A stretch of DNA of 32,000 bases, from NCBI RefSeq assembly GCF_000425205.1, contig NZ_KE384328.1:157296-189295 (forward strand), given 5' to 3'. This DNA comes from Pontibacillus halophilus JSM 076056 = DSM 19796. Lineage in GTDB: Bacteria; Bacillota; Bacilli; Bacillales; BH030062. The notes beneath the pieces are model-generated. The model saw nothing but the letters and a program-made list of their open reading frames with translations, was not told the origin of the DNA and ran no database searches. A program made the translations under genes and the position numbers. This document shows, piece by piece, positions 2,054-18,634 of this stretch. How positions within the stretch are numbered: the stretch's first letter is position 1; each line of letters opens with the position of its first letter.

Positions 2054-3854
2054 TGAGCATATGAAGCTTAAAGAACAAAGTGGTTATACGATGTTGGTTG
2101 TGCTTCTAGTGTTTACAATCATTAGTATTCTTGGTCTAGCTTTAATCGGGTTAACTGTAAATTCAACTACATCTGTAAGTGTCACCGAAACCAAAGTGAC
2201 TAGTATTAATTCAGCAGAAAGTGAATTGGATGAGACGTTGGCAGTAGTCCAAAATGAACTGGATAGAATTAATGAGAAAATCGATAAAAACAAGATTATT
2301 GATATTGATGGGGCAAAACTCGGATTATTGAATTTAATACAGGAATTAATTCGGGATAATCCTGACTATGAAATCACCTATGATTTTGACCTTCTCTCAG
2401 AAGGGATGTTGGCTGCCAACGTAACGATGAAAATACCAGTGGATAATTCGGATAAGGTGCTAGTAAAAGAAATTGAGTTCTCTACTATAGCGGATATCTT
2501 TAAATATAGTACAGTTACTCCAGGAAACTTAACCCTAAACGGTGCGAGTTATATTGAAGGGGATGTGTATGTAGGGGAGGATTTATATACAAGTAAGTCT
2601 GGAAAGTTCATTTCGGGATCTACTTTCTATCCAGAAACAACTTACCCCGCATTTACAAGAGGGGAATTGACCGTAGGGGGGGATTTCAAAGAACTGGAGT
2701 ACGTAAAGCGGAGAAGCTGTTGGTTCTTTAGTTGTTATTATTACTACGATGATGTTACTTCTACATTCAATCCAACAGATGAAAACTTGGAAAAGTACTT
2801 TAGCTTACCTCCAAAGGTTGAGAATCAACAAGAGATTGACACCTCGTTAAAGGTTCTAGAAGACTTTATCGAACCAGCAGAGGAAACAATAGAATCTCTG
2901 AGGTTCATTTCCAGTAGTTACAATCGATTTACTCATATTGTAAAGAATAATTTGAATGGTTTCGAGAACAACACTACATATGGAACAACGCTAGTCGATA
3001 AGGGTCTTACGATTGCTTCTGGAAGAACCACAGTTATTCATGGTGACCTAGTTGTGAACAATCGATTTTCTCTTAAGAATGCATCTAAACTAGTGGTTCA
3101 TGGTGATTTAATTGTTGAGAGTGACATGGAATTAACAAAAGGCGCTGAATTAGAAGTCACTGGAGATTTAAAGGTTACAGGAAATCTAGAGAGTGAGGAT
3201 AAAGACAATTCCCTTATTGTGAATGGATCTATGTTGGTTTCAGGTAATCTTAGTGTTAGTGGGTACTTTGAAGTTCAATCAGATGATGGGATTATCTTTG
3301 TTTATGGGGATGCTTTATTGTCGAATGTAAGTTTTACAGGGGAAATGTATTCGAATGATGATGTAGACTTAAGGGAAGAGGTTAGTGGTAACAGTACCAT
3401 TTATGCTAAAGACGATATAACAGTCAAGCAACTGTCTAGTGGAGAGTTAAATGGGACACTTGTCTTATTGGCGAACGGTGATATGCAGTTATCAAATAAC
3501 AATTTGTATGAAGATGCATCAAAAGTGATGAGAGTGTTCTTATACTCTAACAATAAATTGGAAATTTATGGTGTCGGTTCAAATATTGAGATAAGTGGCG
3601 GGATTTATGGAAGTGATATTATCCTGAATGCAGTGAAAGGGAAGACGTACGAAGGTATAAAGAGTTACAAAACCGGTTTCGACGCTTATGAAGGAAATAA
3701 TTACACCTATATTGAAAGAAACCAAGAGAGTATAACGCCTAAATTATCTCGGTTGAAGGTCATTTACAATAAAGATATGATTCTAAATCCTCCAAAAGGT
3801 ATCCCGACGGTCGAGAACATTAGCTTTAAAGAAGTAGATCGGTATTACGAATAA
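2046..3854 (+). CDS. Large PilX_N-type pilus-associated protein with a C-terminal beta-helix-like repeat region (candidate tip or adhesin subunit)
   Basis: The N-terminus ...EQSGYTMLVVLLVFTIISILGLALIGL resembles the PilX N-terminal hydrophobic segment and has no Glu at +5. A ~20-aa periodic repeat is present (VIHGDLVVNN.., VVHGDLIVES.., EVTGDLKVTG.., IVNGSMLVSG..). The start is ambiguous: in-frame ATGs at 2034, 2046 and 2061. Confidence 0.7.
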   Translation: MSDEHMKLKEQSGYTMLVVLLVFTIISILGLALIGLTVNSTTSVSVTETKVTSINSAESELDETLAVVQNELDRINEKIDKNKIIDIDGAKLGLLNLIQELIRDNPDYEITYDFDLLSEGMLAANVTMKIPVDNSDKVLVKEIEFSTIADIFKYSTVTPGNLTLNGASYIEGDVYVGEDLYTSKSGKFISGSTFYPETTYPAFTRGELTVGGDFKELEYVKRRSCWFFSCYYYYDDVTSTFNPTDENLEKYFSLPPKVENQQEIDTSLKVLEDFIEPAEETIESLRFISSSYNRFTHIVKNNLNGFENNTTYGTTLVDKGLTIASGRTTVIHGDLVVNNRFSLKNASKLVVHGDLIVESDMELTKGAELEVTGDLKVTGNLESEDKDNSLIVNGSMLVSGNLSVSGYFEVQSDDGIIFVYGDALLSNVSFTGEMYSNDDVDLREEVSGNSTIYAKDDITVKQLSSGELNGTLVLLANGDMQLSNNNLYEDASKVMRVFLYSNNKLEIYGVGSNIEISGGIYGSDIILNAVKGKTYEGIKSYKTGFDAYEGNNYTYIERNQESITPKLSRLKVIYNKDMILNPPKGIPTVENISFKEVDRYYE

Positions 3855-3886
3855 AGGTTGAAACGTTAAGTTTCAACCTTTCATTT
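3854..3886 (+). terminator. Rho-independent terminator after the minor-pilin operon
   Basis: The stem aaggttgaaac (3854-3864) pairs with gtttcaacctt (3870-3880) around the loop gttaa. A T-rich tail follows. Confidence 0.8.
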
Positions 3887-3921
3887 AATATATCTTTCCA
3901 ATACATACAGTTTATTATACA

Positions 3922-5742
3922 ATGATAGATAGTCGAAATATGCCAATAACATGGGAAAAATGTTGGAAATGGGGTGGGGGTTTGGAGAACATTGTACTCG
4001 CTTTTATAGCCTTGGGAATCGTGATTCTCTTTGTCTATTACTTTCCACTTGGACTTAGTAAATGGGGGAGAATTGTGTTAGCAGGCTCCTCTTTTTTTAT
4101 AGCCTTATTAGCAATTTTTGTAGGCATCAATCTAGTCTGGTGGCAAGCTGTACTCATTTTACTACTATTTGCATTATTAACATCAATTGTCCTTGACCGG
4201 CGTTTCAATGGTCTTGTTTTTGCTGATGGCGGTATGAGTTATAGGGAAGAAGACACAGAAGATATGCAGAATCAGTATCAACTTACATACACAGGCCCCA
4301 AGAACAACCAACAATTGGATGAAGTGTGGGAAGACGAGTCTGAGCTTCCAGAGTCGTATGCACCAGAGTCTGATCTGCTTGACGAAGATGAGCTGAAAGA
4401 GTGGGAAGAACAGCTCGAAACTGTCTCTGAGATGGACCAATCAGGTGATGACCTCGCTGATTCAGAAGAGTTGGTAGAATTCCGCGCGACTCCTTCCTCT
4501 GAAGAAGTTGGCATGGATTATCTACATGATTACGAGGAGTCTATTGATCAACCAGAGTCTGATCTACTCTCTTCGGAGCTGCTTAGTGAGGAAGAACAAA
4601 TGCTGTTAGAGCGTGAATCACTTATGGAAGAACCTACATTTAACGGGGAAGAAGAAATCATCCAAGAACACGATTCCATTGAACTACAATGGAGAGAAGA
4701 CCTCCTGAATGATGAAGACGTTCAGATTGGGGATTCAGAGCTAATTGAAGATGAGGCAGAACAGGTGCAAGTAGGGCGTGAAGTACTTGAGGAAATTGCT
4801 CCAACTGAGAACGTTGAGTCTCAACAAGAGCTTGAGCAGGAGGGAAATCTCCCTGAGTTTCCTGATTCTTCTATCGAATATGGACATGATTATGCCGAAG
4901 AAGAAAGAGAGTCAGAGGAGAACTGGTTTGATAAAGTGGCTAGAGAGCCGATTGAAGTAGAACCAGAAGAAAATAGTGTAGAGCTCATGCCAGAAGACAT
5001 CATTCAACCATCCATTGAGGAACCACTGGTAGAAGAAAGAATTGAGGAGAAACCTCTTGATGATCAGGAGAAGCACATCGAAGAAGAAGTTGTTTCTGAG
5101 GAGGCACATCGAGAGTCTGAAGAAAGTGGTCCCACAAACGATGACACCTTAGAACAAGAAGAATACCTTGAAGATACACAACCTCTCCCATCCGATGTAG
5201 AAGAAGACGTGGCGGCAAGCACAGATGACCTTGTCGAAGAAGAAGTAATCTTTGAGGAGTTCAAGGCAGACACAGAAGATGTGATCTCTTCTCAAGATAA
5301 TGTGAAAGAAACGGAAGTTACAATAGAGGATGAATCCCCTATAGAAGAGCCTAGCGAGGTGGTTCTTGATGAGCCAATTATCGATGAGGAACCTTCCGAG
5401 GTGACTAGTGAAGTTGAAGAAGATACTCCTCAAGAAGAGCAACCATTAAGAAGGACACCTCTACAAGAGCAGTTGTTCCATACAATGGTAGAGCAAATTC
5501 GACTTCAGGAACACTTGATGAATAGTGTGGAATACGAACAATACATCATGGACCATATTCAACCTTCACTTGACGACCAAGATTACTTCACGTTTAGTTA
5601 TTTGCTCATCCAGCATTATGTGAAGCACAATCACCAAGAAGCCTTGCGTGACTTCCTTTCTGACTTGGGTAACCGCTTTAACCAGAATACAGCTATAAAA
5701 GCTCAAGTAGAACTGATGCAACAACTATATGTCCATTCATAG
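3922..5742 (+). CDS. Hyper-acidic membrane-anchored protein of unknown function
   Basis: 606-aa ORF. About 3 N-terminal hydrophobic helices (IVLAFIALGIVILFVYYF, IVLAGSSFFIALLAIFVGI, WWQAVLILLLFALLTSIVL). These are followed by ~400 aa dominated by Glu/Asp, then a ~100-aa non-acidic helical C-terminal region. The start is uncertain (ATG 3922, ATG 3940 or TTG 3982) and none has a good SD. Confidence 0.65.
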   Translation: MIDSRNMPITWEKCWKWGGGLENIVLAFIALGIVILFVYYFPLGLSKWGRIVLAGSSFFIALLAIFVGINLVWWQAVLILLLFALLTSIVLDRRFNGLVFADGGMSYREEDTEDMQNQYQLTYTGPKNNQQLDEVWEDESELPESYAPESDLLDEDELKEWEEQLETVSEMDQSGDDLADSEELVEFRATPSSEEVGMDYLHDYEESIDQPESDLLSSELLSEEEQMLLERESLMEEPTFNGEEEIIQEHDSIELQWREDLLNDEDVQIGDSELIEDEAEQVQVGREVLEEIAPTENVESQQELEQEGNLPEFPDSSIEYGHDYAEEERESEENWFDKVAREPIEVEPEENSVELMPEDIIQPSIEEPLVEERIEEKPLDDQEKHIEEEVVSEEAHRESEESGPTNDDTLEQEEYLEDTQPLPSDVEEDVAASTDDLVEEEVIFEEFKADTEDVISSQDNVKETEVTIEDESPIEEPSEVVLDEPIIDEEPSEVTSEVEEDTPQEEQPLRRTPLQEQLFHTMVEQIRLQEHLMNSVEYEQYIMDHIQPSLDDQDYFTFSYLLIQHYVKHNHQEALRDFLSDLGNRFNQNTAIKAQVELMQQLYVHS

Positions 5743-5788: not shown

Positions 5789-6535
5789 ATGAAGAAAAGT
5801 AGAGAGATTGTTGAATTGCCGATTATTAATATTACTGATGGTGAGGAAATGGGGACTGTCAAATCCCTTATCATTAACCCTGAAAAAGGAACCGTCGATT
5901 TTCTTGTTATCCAACATGAAGAGTGGGAAGTAAGTGTAAAAGCCATCCCATTCAAGAAGGTTGTAGGTGTGGGTGAATATGCGGTCACTGTCGATAACGA
6001 AAGTGCCATCATAGATTTGAATGAAATCCCGATTGCTAACAACTTAATGAACAAAAAGGTTAAAATTATTGGAACTCGTGTGATGACTAGAAAAGGCCAA
6101 TTACTTGGGCAAATCGATGAGTACTATGTAAACGATGATAACGGGAATATTGAGGCCATTCACCTTGATATGAAAGATCACACGGAAATGGTCCATCGAG
6201 ATGCTGTTGTAACGTATGGTGAGAAGATGATCATTGTGAATGAGAACATCGAGAACTACTACATTACAGAAGAAGAAGAGCCAACTGCTCCAGTCCTCCA
6301 AGAAGTACCGAGTGTTCTTAATCAAGAGGAAGAACAAGCAAGTGAACAGTTAAACGACCTGCAGAAGAAACAACTGGAATTACTTGAAGGAAAGAAAGTC
6401 GTAAAGGATATTACCAATCAAAACGGGGAACAGATTATTCAAGCAGGTACAATCCTTTCTCAGGACGAAATACAACGTGTTCAATCAGAAGGTCCAAGTG
6501 TCATCGTTGATGTAACGATGAATGTAGCTGAATAG
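5789..6535 (+). CDS. PRC-barrel domain protein (two YlmC/YmxH-like PRC barrels)
   Basis: IVELPIINITDGEEMGTVKSLIINPEKGTVDFLVI and KIIGTRVMTRKGQLLGQIDEYYVNDDNGNIEAIHL both resemble the PRC-barrel signature of YlmC/YmxH-family proteins. An acidic linker and a C-terminal segment follow. Confidence 0.6.
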   Translation: MKKSREIVELPIINITDGEEMGTVKSLIINPEKGTVDFLVIQHEEWEVSVKAIPFKKVVGVGEYAVTVDNESAIIDLNEIPIANNLMNKKVKIIGTRVMTRKGQLLGQIDEYYVNDDNGNIEAIHLDMKDHTEMVHRDAVVTYGEKMIIVNENIENYYITEEEEPTAPVLQEVPSVLNQEEEQASEQLNDLQKKQLELLEGKKVVKDITNQNGEQIIQAGTILSQDEIQRVQSEGPSVIVDVTMNVAE

Positions 6536-6558: not shown

Positions 6559-7863
6559 GTGAAGAACAGGGAAGATATGAGATTATTCCTTTTATTGCTC
6601 GGGTTAAGCATATTTATCTACGGGTTTTCAAATCTTGGTACGTTGCTAACAACTGAAGTATTTGGTGATGAATATACCTACAAAGAGGGGACAGCAGTTG
6701 GACCTGTTGTCCTATCAGGACTTACAAAGTCAGAGGCTAATCATCTGTTAACGGAAGAGAGTAACAGGTGGATTGAAAGTCACCCAATCGAATTCGAGAA
6801 GAAGGAAGAAGAGTTTGTCATTGATAAGCCTGAAATTAACTTCGATATTGAGCAAACGCTTGAACAACTTCAAGAAGGGGTTTCGAATCCATTTGTTGTA
6901 ACCGTTGGACCTAGTTTCATTTCACAATTGTCGAGCGAGTTAGAGGGCGATTTAGTACAGTCGTTAACCCTCGACCAGCTTAAGAGTGACTTAATGCGAA
7001 GGGCCCAGCAGCTGAAACCTGAAGCAATCAGCTATTCTGTCTATCAATATATGGAGTCAGGGACGGAAGAACTTTATGAAGAAGTAGCACGTTATGAACT
7101 CCCAATATCAGATGACGTGCAACCTAGTGACGTAATTGCCTATTTAAATGGAACGCGTATTAAGCCTAATGAGCCTTACTCCATCCTAAATGAGGTGGAA
7201 GGGAAAGAAATCTTAAATGAACGCGCTCTGAATTTAGTTGCATCGGGGATTTATGGGGCGGTCTTACAAACGAATTTCGTTATTCAACAAAGACATTTAA
7301 GTGCTACCTTACCTGATTATGCTGAACTTGGGCGTGAAGCAAGTATACGAAGCGACCAGGCCCACGACCTAGTTATAAACAACCCTAATCAATCAACGTA
7401 TGAAGTTTGGGTGAAGCGTGATGGTGAACAGCTCGTCGTGACGTTACATGGCTATCCATTGCCTAATGATTATGATGTCCAGGTTACATCTAAACAAGAT
7501 TTAAAACCACGCACGGTTGTTCAATATAGTTCAACACTTGCCGAAGGTCAGTCGAAACTAGTAAATGAAGGCGTTGATGGGGTTGTAGTTGAAGTCTACC
7601 GAACGATTAAAGACAACGGTATTATCCTGTCAGAGGAGTTCATTTCAGAGGATTACTATCCACCGACAAATCGTACGATCCTAAAATACGGAGACGAATC
7701 CACGCTATCTGAATTTAACTCAAGCGGTACAGGTTCTTCAAATGGAGATGCCTCCTCAAATCCTGATGATGATGATGCTTCTACACCACCTTCAGACAAG
7801 GATGGCATTATAGATGACGTCGGAGATGTGTGGGAAGCACCAGGACAATTAAAGGGAAATTAA
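6559..7863 (+). CDS. Membrane-anchored VanW-like (degenerate) / G5-like domain protein
   Basis: GTG start with RBS AAAGGAGG. N-terminal signal or anchor LFLLLLGLSIFIYGF. A VanW-like core (...QQRHLSATLPDYAELGREASI..DLVINNPNQSTYEVWV..) lacks the usual GGGxCQ-type motif. A G5-like stretch is present (VVQYSSTLAEGQSKLVNEGVDGVVVEVYRT). The C-terminal tail is acidic and rich in D, S and P. Confidence 0.5.
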   Translation: MKNREDMRLFLLLLGLSIFIYGFSNLGTLLTTEVFGDEYTYKEGTAVGPVVLSGLTKSEANHLLTEESNRWIESHPIEFEKKEEEFVIDKPEINFDIEQTLEQLQEGVSNPFVVTVGPSFISQLSSELEGDLVQSLTLDQLKSDLMRRAQQLKPEAISYSVYQYMESGTEELYEEVARYELPISDDVQPSDVIAYLNGTRIKPNEPYSILNEVEGKEILNERALNLVASGIYGAVLQTNFVIQQRHLSATLPDYAELGREASIRSDQAHDLVINNPNQSTYEVWVKRDGEQLVVTLHGYPLPNDYDVQVTSKQDLKPRTVVQYSSTLAEGQSKLVNEGVDGVVVEVYRTIKDNGIILSEEFISEDYYPPTNRTILKYGDESTLSEFNSSGTGSSNGDASSNPDDDDASTPPSDKDGIIDDVGDVWEAPGQLKGN

Positions 7864-7878
7864 TCCTTTAGCAACAAG

Positions 7879-7909
7879 AAGCCCTTGCCAGCTGCAAGGG
7901 CTTTTATTC
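7879..7909 (+). terminator. Rho-independent terminator
   Basis: aagcccttgc (7879-7888) pairs with gcaagggctt (7894-7903) around the loop cagct, followed by ttattc. Confidence 0.8.
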
Positions 7910-7940
7910 TAAATGACGGTGAATGAAAGTAGGGGAATGT

Positions 7941-9569
7941 ATGGCGGTAAAGCGAAAGCGACTAGGTGACTTGTTGAAAGAGGCGGACTTGATTACCGAA
8001 TCAGAAATCGAGACGGCGTTGCAATCAAAGAAAGAAGGGCAGAAGCTTGGCGATGTTCTGCTCGAGAAAGGTTACATAACTGAACAACAATTAATTGAAG
8101 TACTCGAAGTCCAGTTGGACATCCCTCGCATCTCACTCTATCGTTACCCAATCGACCCAACTATTATTAATATTGTGGACAAAGAGTTTGCCCAGCGCAA
8201 TATGGTCATTCCTATAAATAAAGAGGGGGATGTTCTGACCGTTGCGATGAATGACCCGATGGATTATTTTGCTATAGATGATTTGAAGATTTCAACAGGG
8301 TTCCAAGTGACTCCTGTAATTGCAACGAAAGATGAAATCATCCAAGCCATTAACAAACATTACAATATTAAAGATGAAGACTTAGATGTCGAGGTTTCAG
8401 ATGATCCAGAAGATGCCCCAATTGTGCGGTTAATGAACCAGATTCTCCAAACAGGCATCCAGTTAAAAGCAAGCGATATCCATATGGACCCTCAAGAAGA
8501 TAAGGTGTTCGTACGTTACAGAATTGATGGTGTACTCCGTACAGAACGATCATTACCTAAGAACTTTCAACGTTCATTGACAGCACGGGTAAAGATTATG
8601 GCCAACTTAAATATTACTGAATCTCGCCTTCCTCAAGATGGGCGGATTAAGACAACTGTTGATATGAAGCCGGTAGATTTACGAATATCTACACTTCCGA
8701 CTGTTTATGGAGAGAAGATTGTAATTCGTATTCTCGACTTAGGTCAGGCTATGAATGGTTTAGACGACTTAGGGTTTAATAAAGTGAATCAGAAGAAATT
8801 GATGAATTTAATTGAGCAGCCTTCCGGATTAGTCTTAATTACAGGGCCAACGGGTTCAGGTAAGTCGTCCACCCTTTACGCCTCTTTGAATCATTTGAAT
8901 ACAGAGGATGTAAACATTATTACGATTGAGGATCCGGTGGAATATCAGCTGGAAGGAATTAATCAAGTGCAAGTGAACAACCAAGTGGGGTTAACGTTTG
9001 CCAGAGGCCTTCGATCTGTGCTCCGTCAAGACCCGAATATCGTCATGGTCGGGGAAATACGAGATTCTGAGACAGCAGAAATTGCAATACGAGCTTCGTT
9101 AACAGGGCACCTTGTTTTCAGCACCCTTCATACGAACAGTGCGATTTCAACGATTCCAAGGCTTTTCGACATGGATATCGAGCCTTATCTAGTTGTTTCC
9201 TCTGTAACGGGTATCATTGCACAACGACTTGTGCGAAAGATTTGTCGTGACTGCAAAACAGCCTATGAACCCACCGAAATGGAACGGAAACATTTTGTGA
9301 AGCGAGGCATTCAAGTTCAAACTGTCTACAGAGGTCAAGGGTGTAACAGTTGCCAACACACAGGATACAGAGGGCGGATGGCAATACAAGAGTTACTTGT
9401 TATTGATGATGAAATTCGTAAGCTATTAATGAACAACCACTCCATAAGTGATATCCATCACTATGCATTCAAGAATGGGATGATCTTTCTAATTGACGAC
9501 GGATTGTTGAAAGTAAAGCAAGGAAGGACGACAACTGAAGAAGTGCTGCGAGTAGCAAAATCTGACTAG
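7941..9569 (+). CDS. pilB: Type IV pilus assembly (extension) ATPase PilB, GspE family
   Basis: T2SSE N-terminal domain, Walker A GPTGSGKSS, His box GHLVFSTLHTN, and the tetracysteine CRDC...CNSC typical of PilB/GspE. The ATG at 7941 (MAVKRKRLGDLL) is preferred over the 7923 start in the ORF track. Confidence 0.95.
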   Translation: MAVKRKRLGDLLKEADLITESEIETALQSKKEGQKLGDVLLEKGYITEQQLIEVLEVQLDIPRISLYRYPIDPTIINIVDKEFAQRNMVIPINKEGDVLTVAMNDPMDYFAIDDLKISTGFQVTPVIATKDEIIQAINKHYNIKDEDLDVEVSDDPEDAPIVRLMNQILQTGIQLKASDIHMDPQEDKVFVRYRIDGVLRTERSLPKNFQRSLTARVKIMANLNITESRLPQDGRIKTTVDMKPVDLRISTLPTVYGEKIVIRILDLGQAMNGLDDLGFNKVNQKKLMNLIEQPSGLVLITGPTGSGKSSTLYASLNHLNTEDVNIITIEDPVEYQLEGINQVQVNNQVGLTFARGLRSVLRQDPNIVMVGEIRDSETAEIAIRASLTGHLVFSTLHTNSAISTIPRLFDMDIEPYLVVSSVTGIIAQRLVRKICRDCKTAYEPTEMERKHFVKRGIQVQTVYRGQGCNSCQHTGYRGRMAIQELLVIDDEIRKLLMNNHSISDIHHYAFKNGMIFLIDDGLLKVKQGRTTTEEVLRVAKSD

Positions 9570-17680: not shown

Positions 17681-18634
17681 GTGGACAAGCCCAACCAAAT
17701 CTCGGTACGCATTAATGGGGAAGACTCGTATCTAGAACGGTCGGATGACCCAAAGGAACAAGAATCGAACCGGAAATTGTTTGAGAAAGCTCAAGCCGAG
17801 CAAGCTTCTGCTGTTGAAGAAGAACAGGAGGATTCTGACGAGTCCGCACCAACCATTTCAGTCATTGAGCGACCTTCAAAGAAAAAGAAGCGAAGCATTG
17901 CTATACCACTCTATGTGAAACAGTTAGCCGTTGCAGGTATTTCCGCCCTCGCAATAGGACTTGTGCTCGGAGTCGTGATGTTACGTTTAATGAGTGCAGC
18001 AGGAGGGAATGTCACTGAGGGGGTTCGGAGCGAGGCTGCTGTTCCCGCCTCTCAATATGCAACAACGTCGAACAATCAACCTTTCACCTTTTCAGCTGTA
18101 GATGGATACATCGTCCAAGTCGGTGTGTATTCGACTGTCGAAAAGGCTGAAGAATGGCAGCAAGTACTTGTCTCGAAAGGTGTAGAGACTCTTACATGGC
18201 AGCAAGATGGACAAGTTACGCTTGTGGCAGGTGTGGCTCCCTCTTTAGACCAGGCACAGAAAATAGGGGACGCACTCAAGACGAAAGGCGTAGAGACGTA
18301 TTCAAAATCATGGTCCGTCCCATCGGTAGATGCATCTGTTTCTCAAGCAGAAGGTAGCTGGGTGCAGGAAGGAATGAACGTGTGGGCAAACCTTGTAACA
18401 GAAGCAACTACGGGGAGTGAACAGCTCGGTGTGAATCCTTCTATTGAGAAGTGGCTCCAAGGTATGCCTGATGAAACGAGGGAAGCTGCATTGCCGTTAC
18501 GTGATGAATTTAAAGAACTCGCGACTCTTTCACAGAGTTATGATGGAAATCCGACAGAAGCAGGATTAATGGATATACAGATGAAGTTAGTAGGCATTTG
18601 GAAGAGCTATGAAACCTATCTTCAAAAGAGCTAA
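17681..18634 (+). CDS. SPOR domain-containing bitopic membrane protein (possible SpoIIB counterpart by position)
   Basis: GTG start with RBS AAGAGGGGA. Acidic and basic cytoplasmic N-terminus, TM LAVAGISALAIGLVLGVVML, and a SPOR-like segment YIVQVGVYSTVEKAEEWQQVLVSKGVETLTWQQDGQVTLVAGV. It lies immediately upstream of maf, as spoIIB does in B. subtilis. Confidence 0.7.
   Translation: MDKPNQISVRINGEDSYLERSDDPKEQESNRKLFEKAQAEQASAVEEEQEDSDESAPTISVIERPSKKKKRSIAIPLYVKQLAVAGISALAIGLVLGVVMLRLMSAAGGNVTEGVRSEAAVPASQYATTSNNQPFTFSAVDGYIVQVGVYSTVEKAEEWQQVLVSKGVETLTWQQDGQVTLVAGVAPSLDQAQKIGDALKTKGVETYSKSWSVPSVDASVSQAEGSWVQEGMNVWANLVTEATTGSEQLGVNPSIEKWLQGMPDETREAALPLRDEFKELATLSQSYDGNPTEAGLMDIQMKLVGIWKSYETYLQKS

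Follow-up and report, generated by a model that had tools for sequence, protein, structure and literature searches.

The acidic gene and its product

We analysed a window of 32,000 nucleotides from Pontibacillus halophilus JSM 076056 = DSM 19796 (NCBI RefSeq assembly GCF_000425205.1, contig NZ_KE384328.1, positions 157,296 to 189,295 of the forward strand; coordinates given for this gene and its neighbours are those of the window). The window carries a type IV pilus (T4P) locus with the gene order minor pilins, a gene for a strongly acidic membrane-anchored protein, a double PRC-barrel gene, a VanW/G5 gene, pilB, pilT, and pilC. The acidic gene is the subject of this report. An earlier note on this DNA had placed it at the head of a three-gene unit, and we found that it heads a conserved unit together with the PRC-barrel and VanW/G5 genes. 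The features of the unit are listed in Table 1.

The plus-strand frame is open from 3922 to 5742 and gives a reading of 606 amino acids (aa) from the ATG at 3922. The earlier note had found no start codon with a convincing Shine-Dalgarno (SD) sequence, which was an oversight of the TTG at 3982. The energy of the duplex with the anti-SD sequence was -13.5 kcal/mol for TTG 3982, compared with +0.8 for ATG 3922 and -2.2 for ATG 3940, and the pairing of TTG 3982 equals or exceeds that of the neighbouring genes. The public gene call is likewise a protein of 586 aa starting at this TTG. Helix 1 forms the very start of the family members described below, and in relatives the in-frame translation just 5' of the start reads K/R-R/G-G-E/G, i.e., a translated GGAGG-type site. 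On the basis of the SD pairing, the public call, the starts of the family members, and the upstream translation in relatives, the coding sequence is likely 3982-5742, with a TTG start and 586 aa plus the stop codon. The -10 box of a promoter-like site ends at 3923; if this site were used, transcription would begin after ATG 3922 and exclude that start, although promoter-like sites in the region are as numerous as expected from shuffled sequences, so that the site is weak evidence.

Hydropathy, composition, and AlphaFold2 modelling confirmed the architecture that had been read from the sequence, namely three transmembrane helices, an acidic tract of about 400 aa, and a C-terminal helical domain. 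In the 606-aa reading, the hydropathy profile showed three hydrophobic helices within about aa 22-95, and the full-length AlphaFold2 model, based on an alignment of 29 sequences, placed the anchor helices at residues 2-20, 27-47, and 53-74 (586-aa numbering) with a predicted local distance difference test score (pLDDT) of about 70. Residues 106-500 (606-aa numbering) consist of 37.2% Asp plus Glu (D+E) and 4.1% Lys plus Arg (K+R) and have a net charge of -131. When the 2,458 open frames of 200 aa or more in the genome are ranked by D+E fraction, the protein comes third; the genome median is 13.7%. In the model, the sole ordered block of the tail was a helix at residues 203-214 (pLDDT near 69), which coincides with the motif SEEEQMLLERES. 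In the family alignment this motif has the consensus [YL][ML]S[ED][IE]E.LL, with one Glu nearly invariant. The last 95 residues or so are of ordinary composition and were modelled as five helices with a pLDDT of at least 90 in the full-length model; modelled alone, the C-terminal domain reached a pLDDT of 90.1 and a predicted template modelling score of 0.80.

The short recurring motifs that had been reported in the tail are present, with two copies each of PESDLL (aa 148 and 211) and (E)EPSEV (aa 476 and 490). Repeated 5-mers were in mild excess, with five found against a mean of 1.3 in composition-preserving shuffles (P = 0.023), and no tandem DNA repeat was found in the P. halophilus gene. 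We also considered adaptation to a halophilic life as the source of the acidity. This explanation was rejected because members from Robertmurraya, Mesobacillus, and Calidifontibacillus, which are not known as genera of halophiles, are equally acidic, and because the protein stands out even within the P. halophilus genome.

Table 1. Positions of the features of the acidic gene and its surroundings in the window.
Feature	Position	Strand	Remarks
Terminator-like hairpin	3853..3881	+	12-pair stem, 5-nt loop; consensus scan only; closes the upstream minor-pilin/PilX-like operon
Promoter-like site TTTCCA-17-TACAAT	3895..3923	+	9/12 consensus matches
Shine-Dalgarno-like GGGGTG	3971..3976	+	5 nt before TTG 3982; pairing with the 16S 3' tail
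Three-transmembrane-helix anchor, family-defining	3982..4206	+	conserved P22, W54-Q55
Polyacidic disordered tail (predicted)	4228..5433	+	aa 83-484 (586-aa numbering); pLDDT <50
Conserved amphipathic helix motif in the tail	4588..4623	+	SEEEQMLLERES
Five-helix C-terminal domain (predicted)	5458..5739	+	loop/helix signature QPSLxDQDYYTFAxLLxxHY
Double PRC-barrel gene	5789..6535	+	PF05239, two stretches; no signal peptide
VanW/G5 gene, third of the unit	6559..7863	+	bitopic, one N-terminal membrane helix
GC-rich hairpin	7879..7909 (hairpin 7879..7903)	.	separates the VanW/G5 gene from pilB; flanked on either side by a T-rich tail

Family distribution and linkage to pilus genes

Searches of Pfam, NCBIfam, and the PDB sequences with the whole protein and with its C-terminal domain gave no credible match. 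A match to TgpA_N over the membrane helices (E = 0.065) and another to the PI3K p85 BH domain (E about 3e-3, 21 bits, 49 residues) were judged to be chance matches, and literature searches returned no paper describing the family. In a region-restricted search, the P. halophilus C-terminal domain recovered only itself, and the homolog from Bacillus yapensis as the query found relatives. Six-frame searches of related genomes revealed proteins of the same plan, with a similar three-helix N-terminus, a variable acidic middle, and about 100 conserved residues at the C-terminus. Pontibacillus salipaludis, P. chungwhensis, B. yapensis, Robertmurraya massiliosenegalensis, and Calidifontibacillus erzurumensis are among the species with such a protein. 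A profile of the C-terminal domain matched 231 clusters among 1.84 billion representative proteins, and 182 of these had E-values of 1e-10 or below. Wherever the protein was full-length, it measured 336-884 aa and the domain formed its very C-terminal end, N-terminal hydrophobic helices were present in 135 of 139 proteins with the domain, and the source annotation was always "hypothetical protein". The earlier statement that the protein belongs to no known family therefore stands insofar as no described family matches, and has to be revised insofar as the protein is a member of a large, recognisable, and unnamed family with a defined partner gene. The family has no name in Pfam or NCBIfam and, to the extent of these searches, is undescribed.

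The linkers between the anchor and the C-terminal domain ranged from 185 to 711 aa (median 310), with 23-45% D+E (median 32%), a median of 5% K+R, and net charges of -31 to -246. The conservation of charge while sequence and length vary is the signature expected of a functional disordered polyanion. Tandem acidic repeats were seen in the tails of two members, one with a unit of 210 bp (70 aa) in 5.7 copies at 90% identity (locus L067, 4179-5366) and one with a unit of 75 bp (25 aa) in about 4 copies (locus L085, 1033-1388). The anchor was recognisable by itself as well, since a profile built from 145 members and searched against 7,648 open reading frames of the P. halophilus genome picked out only the acidic gene (E = 4e-27; next best 5e-3). 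In the genome search, the anchor-domain match of the P. halophilus protein had an E-value of 1.7e-21.

The distribution of these parts was determined in 301 genomes drawn evenly from the order and covering 117 genera; as the genomes are related, the co-occurrence counts should be taken as a pattern and not as independent statistics. The C-terminal domain was found in 70 genomes from 39 genera, in exactly one copy each, and the anchor domain in 125 genomes from 56 genera. The linkage to pilus genes suggested by the earlier note was strongly borne out among the relatives. PilT was present in 69 of the 70 genomes with the C-terminal domain and in 120 of the 125 with the anchor, compared with 207 of all 301, and a T4P locus surrounded the C-terminal-domain gene in each of the 45 loci that were cut out. 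The usual order was minor pilins, acidic protein, PRC-barrel protein, VanW/G5 protein, and then pilB-pilT-pilC-pilA-pilD-pilM-N-O. A sample across the class added a few members in other orders, where PRC-barrel and VanW/G5 genes again followed the acidic gene.

Some loci depart from this order. At three of them (L020, L024, and L027) the pair of acidic and PRC-barrel genes follows pilO and precedes a spoIIB-like gene and maf, and no VanW/G5 gene was detected nearby. Another (L053, G167:C11:456000-472284) keeps the acidic, PRC-barrel, VanW/G5, and pilM/N/O-like genes beside a spoIIB-like gene and maf; pilB, pilT, pilC, pilA, and pilD were not detected at this locus, nor PilT in the genome (G167), and it is possibly a decaying pilus locus.

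The PRC-barrel gene follows the C-terminal domain closely. It was the next gene after the acidic gene in 45 of 45 loci, and among the 301 genomes it occurred in 75, comprising all 70 genomes with the C-terminal domain and five others. In these five, the gene directly upstream encodes a long three-helix protein that is likewise acidic and ends in a divergent helical domain, so that, with the divergent copies counted, end domain and PRC-barrel gene occur together in 75 of 75 genomes. The PRC-barrel protein, the putative partner of the C-terminal domain, has neither a hydrophobic leader nor a membrane helix. Its own C-terminal part (window 6260-6535) consists of an acidic linker followed by a well-conserved module, some 50 aa long and without a Pfam match, with the consensus KQxELLxGKxVxKDIxxxxGxxLxxxGxxLxxxDVxxAQxxGPSVVVDLTMNV. 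A match of this tail to KDPG aldolase was judged to be due to chance.

Pilus loci without the C-terminal domain often carry a shorter version of the protein. Among 20 such loci, 17 had a short form directly upstream of the VanW/G5 gene and pilB, and the PRC-barrel gene was found only in one, the locus with a divergent end domain. The short forms lack the end domain; they comprise the three-helix domain (profile E-values between 1e-32 and 4e-4) and some 70-650 aa of acidic tail. No PRC-barrel gene is present at the short-form loci (L007, L008, L010, L012, and L058-L077; e.g., L059:5987-6673 and L069:3161-3946), and the tails of several short forms terminate in a common motif of the type R-x-x-L-F-x-x-L-E-E. 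Long or short, the family members adjoin the VanW/G5 gene in most loci.

Proposed function and alternatives

The distribution of charges around the helices gives an indication of the topology. Across the 145 members, the mean number of Lys and Arg residues was 2.2 at the junction of helices 1 and 2 and 1.8 just after helix 3, compared with 0.4 in the loop between helices 2 and 3 and about 0.25 in the N-terminal stub. By the positive-inside rule, the side of a membrane protein rich in Lys and Arg faces the cytoplasm. As three helices put loop 1 and the C-terminus on the same, K/R-rich side, the tail and the C-terminus are probably cytoplasmic. The absence of a hydrophobic leader from the PRC-barrel protein fits a cytoplasmic meeting place. 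In this orientation only about 1-5 residues would lie outside the membrane.

These observations are consistent with a role of the acidic protein as an accessory of T4P of type IVa, in the form of a flexible polyanionic tether that would dock the PRC-barrel protein at the pilus machine, and we give this reading about an even chance of being right. The three-helix anchor would be the conserved core, located in the cytoplasmic membrane beside the pilus platform, the VanW/G5 protein, or both. The tail would be a long, self-repelling, and flexible polyanion facing the cytoplasm, in which a single short amphipathic helix is conserved. In roughly one third of the genomes with pili, including that of P. 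halophilus, the tail ends in the five-helix, TPR-like domain, and because the PRC-barrel gene is its strictly co-inherited neighbour, the simplest reading is that this domain docks the PRC-barrel protein. The acidic protein would then act as a membrane tether or hub that keeps a cytoplasmic partner near the pilus machine. The earlier suggestion of a membrane-anchored polyanionic tether is supported. The sequence comparisons establish the architecture, the family, its single-copy state, the linkage to pilus genes, and the co-occurrence with the PRC-barrel gene, and we infer from these the topology, the physical interaction, and the function as a hub.

Several points weigh against the tether reading. 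Besides the relatedness of the genomes, 138 of the 207 PilT-positive genomes lack the C-terminal domain, which marks this domain as an add-on and not as a core component. In one genus, all ten genomes (G020, G069, G106, G139, G168, G195, G221, G246, G270, and G293) are PilT-positive and have anchor frames of no more than 104-133 aa, in which the tail is nearly absent, and the tail is thus dispensable for having pili in that genus. The segment right after helix 3 is acidic (mean 3.6 D+E in 18 residues), which somewhat weakens the positive-inside argument. Furthermore, the likeness of the C-terminal domain to TPR folds is not significant, as Foldseek comparison of the domain with the PDB produced TPR-like structures at the top of the list with a best E-value of 0.8 and a template modelling (TM) score of about 0.5. 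To judge from the tail-less and short forms, the tail and the end domain are a regulatory or organisational elaboration of the pilus system rather than a core part of its assembly.

The same variation can be read differently, with the anchor as a core subunit of the pilus platform, together with the VanW/G5 protein or with PilC, PilN, or PilO, and the tail as a largely passive, fast-evolving, and clientless appendage. The anchor is indeed the most widespread part (present in 125 of the 301 genomes, the C-terminal domain in 70), and the tail, unconserved in sequence, varies in length from about 20 to 650 aa up to its near loss in the genus mentioned above. A passive tail would, however, not be expected to keep its acidity throughout the family despite the turnover of its sequence or to retain a conserved short motif, nor would it account for a well-conserved C-terminal domain that strictly co-occurs with the PRC-barrel gene, and we regard this possibility as unlikely.

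A signalling adaptor is improbable to us as well. In this case the tail or the C-terminal domain would regulate or localise cyclic di-GMP (c-di-GMP) signalling by way of PilB, which binds c-di-GMP, or of the GAF-GGDEF cyclase encoded upstream, with the PRC-barrel protein as the effector, and the acidic protein would serve mainly to control the expression or activity of the pili. This idea agrees with the GGDEF gene that lies a short way upstream in the window, as it does in many relatives, and two papers report that FimV binds a diguanylate cyclase and modulates second messengers (PMC7033161, PMC12918733). Nevertheless, minor-pilin genes separate the GGDEF gene from the acidic gene in the window, many of the examined loci have no GGDEF gene, and neither PilZ, MshEN, nor degenerate GGDEF/EAL domains were detected in the acidic or the PRC-barrel protein with Pfam and NCBIfam.

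If the tail were instead exported into the wall zone, it could bind Ca2+ or Mg2+, or it could space or lubricate the passage of the pilus through the thick peptidoglycan together with the VanW/G5 protein. In favour of this arrangement, a gene for the VanW/G5 protein, a predicted extracellular product, is always close by, the three rearranged loci apart, the tail as a polyanion would resemble teichoic acids, and the acidity right after helix 3 would suit an exported segment. The distribution of Lys and Arg in the family predicts a cytoplasmic C-terminus, however, neither a signal peptide nor a membrane helix is present in the PRC-barrel protein that strictly accompanies the acidic one, and the acidic protein carries no wall-anchoring motif. 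We therefore consider an exported tail quite unlikely. The role of a cation buffer for Ca2+ or Mg2+ proposed in the earlier note received no support and fits poorly with the predicted cytoplasmic tail. Finally, a function outside the pilus, in sporulation or the cell envelope, with the linkage being an accident of the valS-folC ... spoIIB-maf-mreB neighbourhood, could invoke the gene order, which corresponds to the comC/spoIIB region of B. subtilis, the annotation of the PRC-barrel proteins YlmC/YmxH as sporulation proteins, and the genome that keeps the three-gene unit and pilMNO without pilB, pilT, pilC, pilA, and pilD nearby, but it is highly improbable given the excess of PilT in genomes with the C-terminal domain or the anchor and the fact that the pair of acidic and PRC-barrel genes still lies beside pilus genes when rearranged.

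Comparison with known systems and further features of the window

The closest parallel to the tether reading is found in the polar hub proteins FimV/HubP/TspA of proteobacteria. FimV/HubP proteins are described as consisting of a LysM domain, a transmembrane region, a large, poorly conserved, and size-variable acidic region that is unstructured and cytoplasmic, and, at the C-terminus, a client-binding TPR domain, the "FimV domain"; in HubP the acidic region contains acidic repeats (PMC12918733). FimV organises type IV pili and influences cyclic AMP and c-di-GMP (PMC12918733; PMC7033161). The acidic protein resembles FimV/HubP/TspA in being anchored in the membrane, with three helices here and one in FimV/HubP. 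It also shares with FimV/HubP a long, acidic, unstructured region that varies in length and sequence, predicted here from the charge distribution to be cytoplasmic, tandem acidic repeats in some family members although not in the P. halophilus gene, a small helical C-terminal domain, and a pilus context, given here by genetic linkage, with a GGDEF gene upstream. Unlike FimV/HubP, the acidic anchor is almost devoid of external loops, has no sequence homology to these proteins, and is encoded inside the pilus locus beside a dedicated PRC-barrel partner. No LysM or other peptidoglycan-binding domain was found in the whole protein with Pfam and NCBIfam, and the FimV_Cterm model (TIGR03504) matched neither six C-terminal domains of the family (E up to 10) nor the P. 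halophilus genome itself (E up to 0.01). Because of the lack of LysM and FimV_Cterm, the three helices instead of one, and the non-significant Foldseek likeness, the acidic protein is not a member of FimV/HubP, although it may work in a similar manner.

By extension of this analogy, the three-gene unit could be a Gram-positive counterpart of FimV/HubP that is split over several proteins. The VanW/G5 protein would represent the wall module and the acidic protein the tether hub, and the C-terminal domain would recruit the PRC-barrel protein as a scaffold, possibly polymer-forming as in the archaeal CdpB, to position or gate the pilus machine and to couple it locally to c-di-GMP. We regard this extended scheme as doubtful, though conceivable. 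If it were true, the unit would be without a described precedent as a landmark or hub system of monoderm type IV pili.

Two parts of the proposed module can also be compared with other proteins. The top of the Foldseek list for the C-terminal domain is made up of TPR-like adaptors, including Fis1, LapB, NprR, LGN, and the C-terminal domain of TssA, with query-normalised TM scores mostly between 0.46 and 0.63. Nevertheless, the C-terminal domain has its own signature, and the TPR hidden Markov models of Pfam gave no match to it. For the PRC-barrel protein, the archaeal proteins CdpB1/CdpB2, which stabilise the divisome, a membrane-tethered machine (PMC12186497), provide a loose precedent for a scaffold, as PRC barrels are common to these proteins, to YlmC/YmxH, and to the partner protein. 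The latter differs in its two barrels, its acidic linker, and its C-terminal module, and a role in polymerisation or cell division is unsupported.

Some proteins of the same chromosomal neighbourhood also invite comparison. SpoVID is a strongly acidic morphogenetic protein of the spore coat in Bacillus, with no membrane helices and a LysM end. The acidic protein is similar to it in being a strongly acidic Bacillales protein of that neighbourhood. Identity with SpoVID or SpoIIB was rejected, as the architecture is different, neither the N-terminal domain of SpoVID nor LysM is present, and the genome has a separate SpoVID-like frame and, in the position of spoIIB, a further frame described below. 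The SpoVID-like frame (G000:C3:147807-148892, plus strand) lies about 8-9.5 kb upstream of the window and encodes 362 aa with 29% D+E and a LysM-like end.

In a published map of the pilus cluster of Paenibacillus thiaminolyticus, drawn in comparison with the cluster of Bacillus infantis, genes are still labelled as "hypothetical proteins of unknown function" (PMC9765702). Our results join three unnamed genes of such a locus into a conserved module, composed of the acidic tether, its putative PRC-barrel partner, and the VanW/G5 membrane protein, which occurs in a large share of the pilus-bearing Bacillales. Knowledge of type IV pili in Gram-positive bacteria lags far behind that of the proteobacterial ones. 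Additionally, nature supplies tail-less, short-tailed, and long forms, the latter with repeats or an end domain, and a comparison of these could show what a polyanionic disordered tether does for a membrane machine.

The remaining features concern the surroundings of the acidic gene. The body of the VanW/G5 protein is probably external; its sequence matched G5 (E = 4e-12) and VanW (E = 3.6e-6, 26.9 bits, just below the cut-off of 27 bits). The two terminators that had been assumed to bound the unit, at 3854-3886 and 7879-7909, are both hairpins, at slightly different positions (Table 1), and the terminator scan scored the second one on the minus strand. On the plus strand, TTTTATTCT follows this hairpin, so that a bidirectional terminator is plausible. 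The start of pilB is ambiguous (7923-7945), as an in-frame ATG at 7941 (residue 7) has a duplex energy of -9.8 kcal/mol compared with -2.7 for the ATG at 7923. Farther downstream, a frame of 317 aa (17681-18634) occupies the position of spoIIB before a gene read as maf and is a putative SpoIIB.

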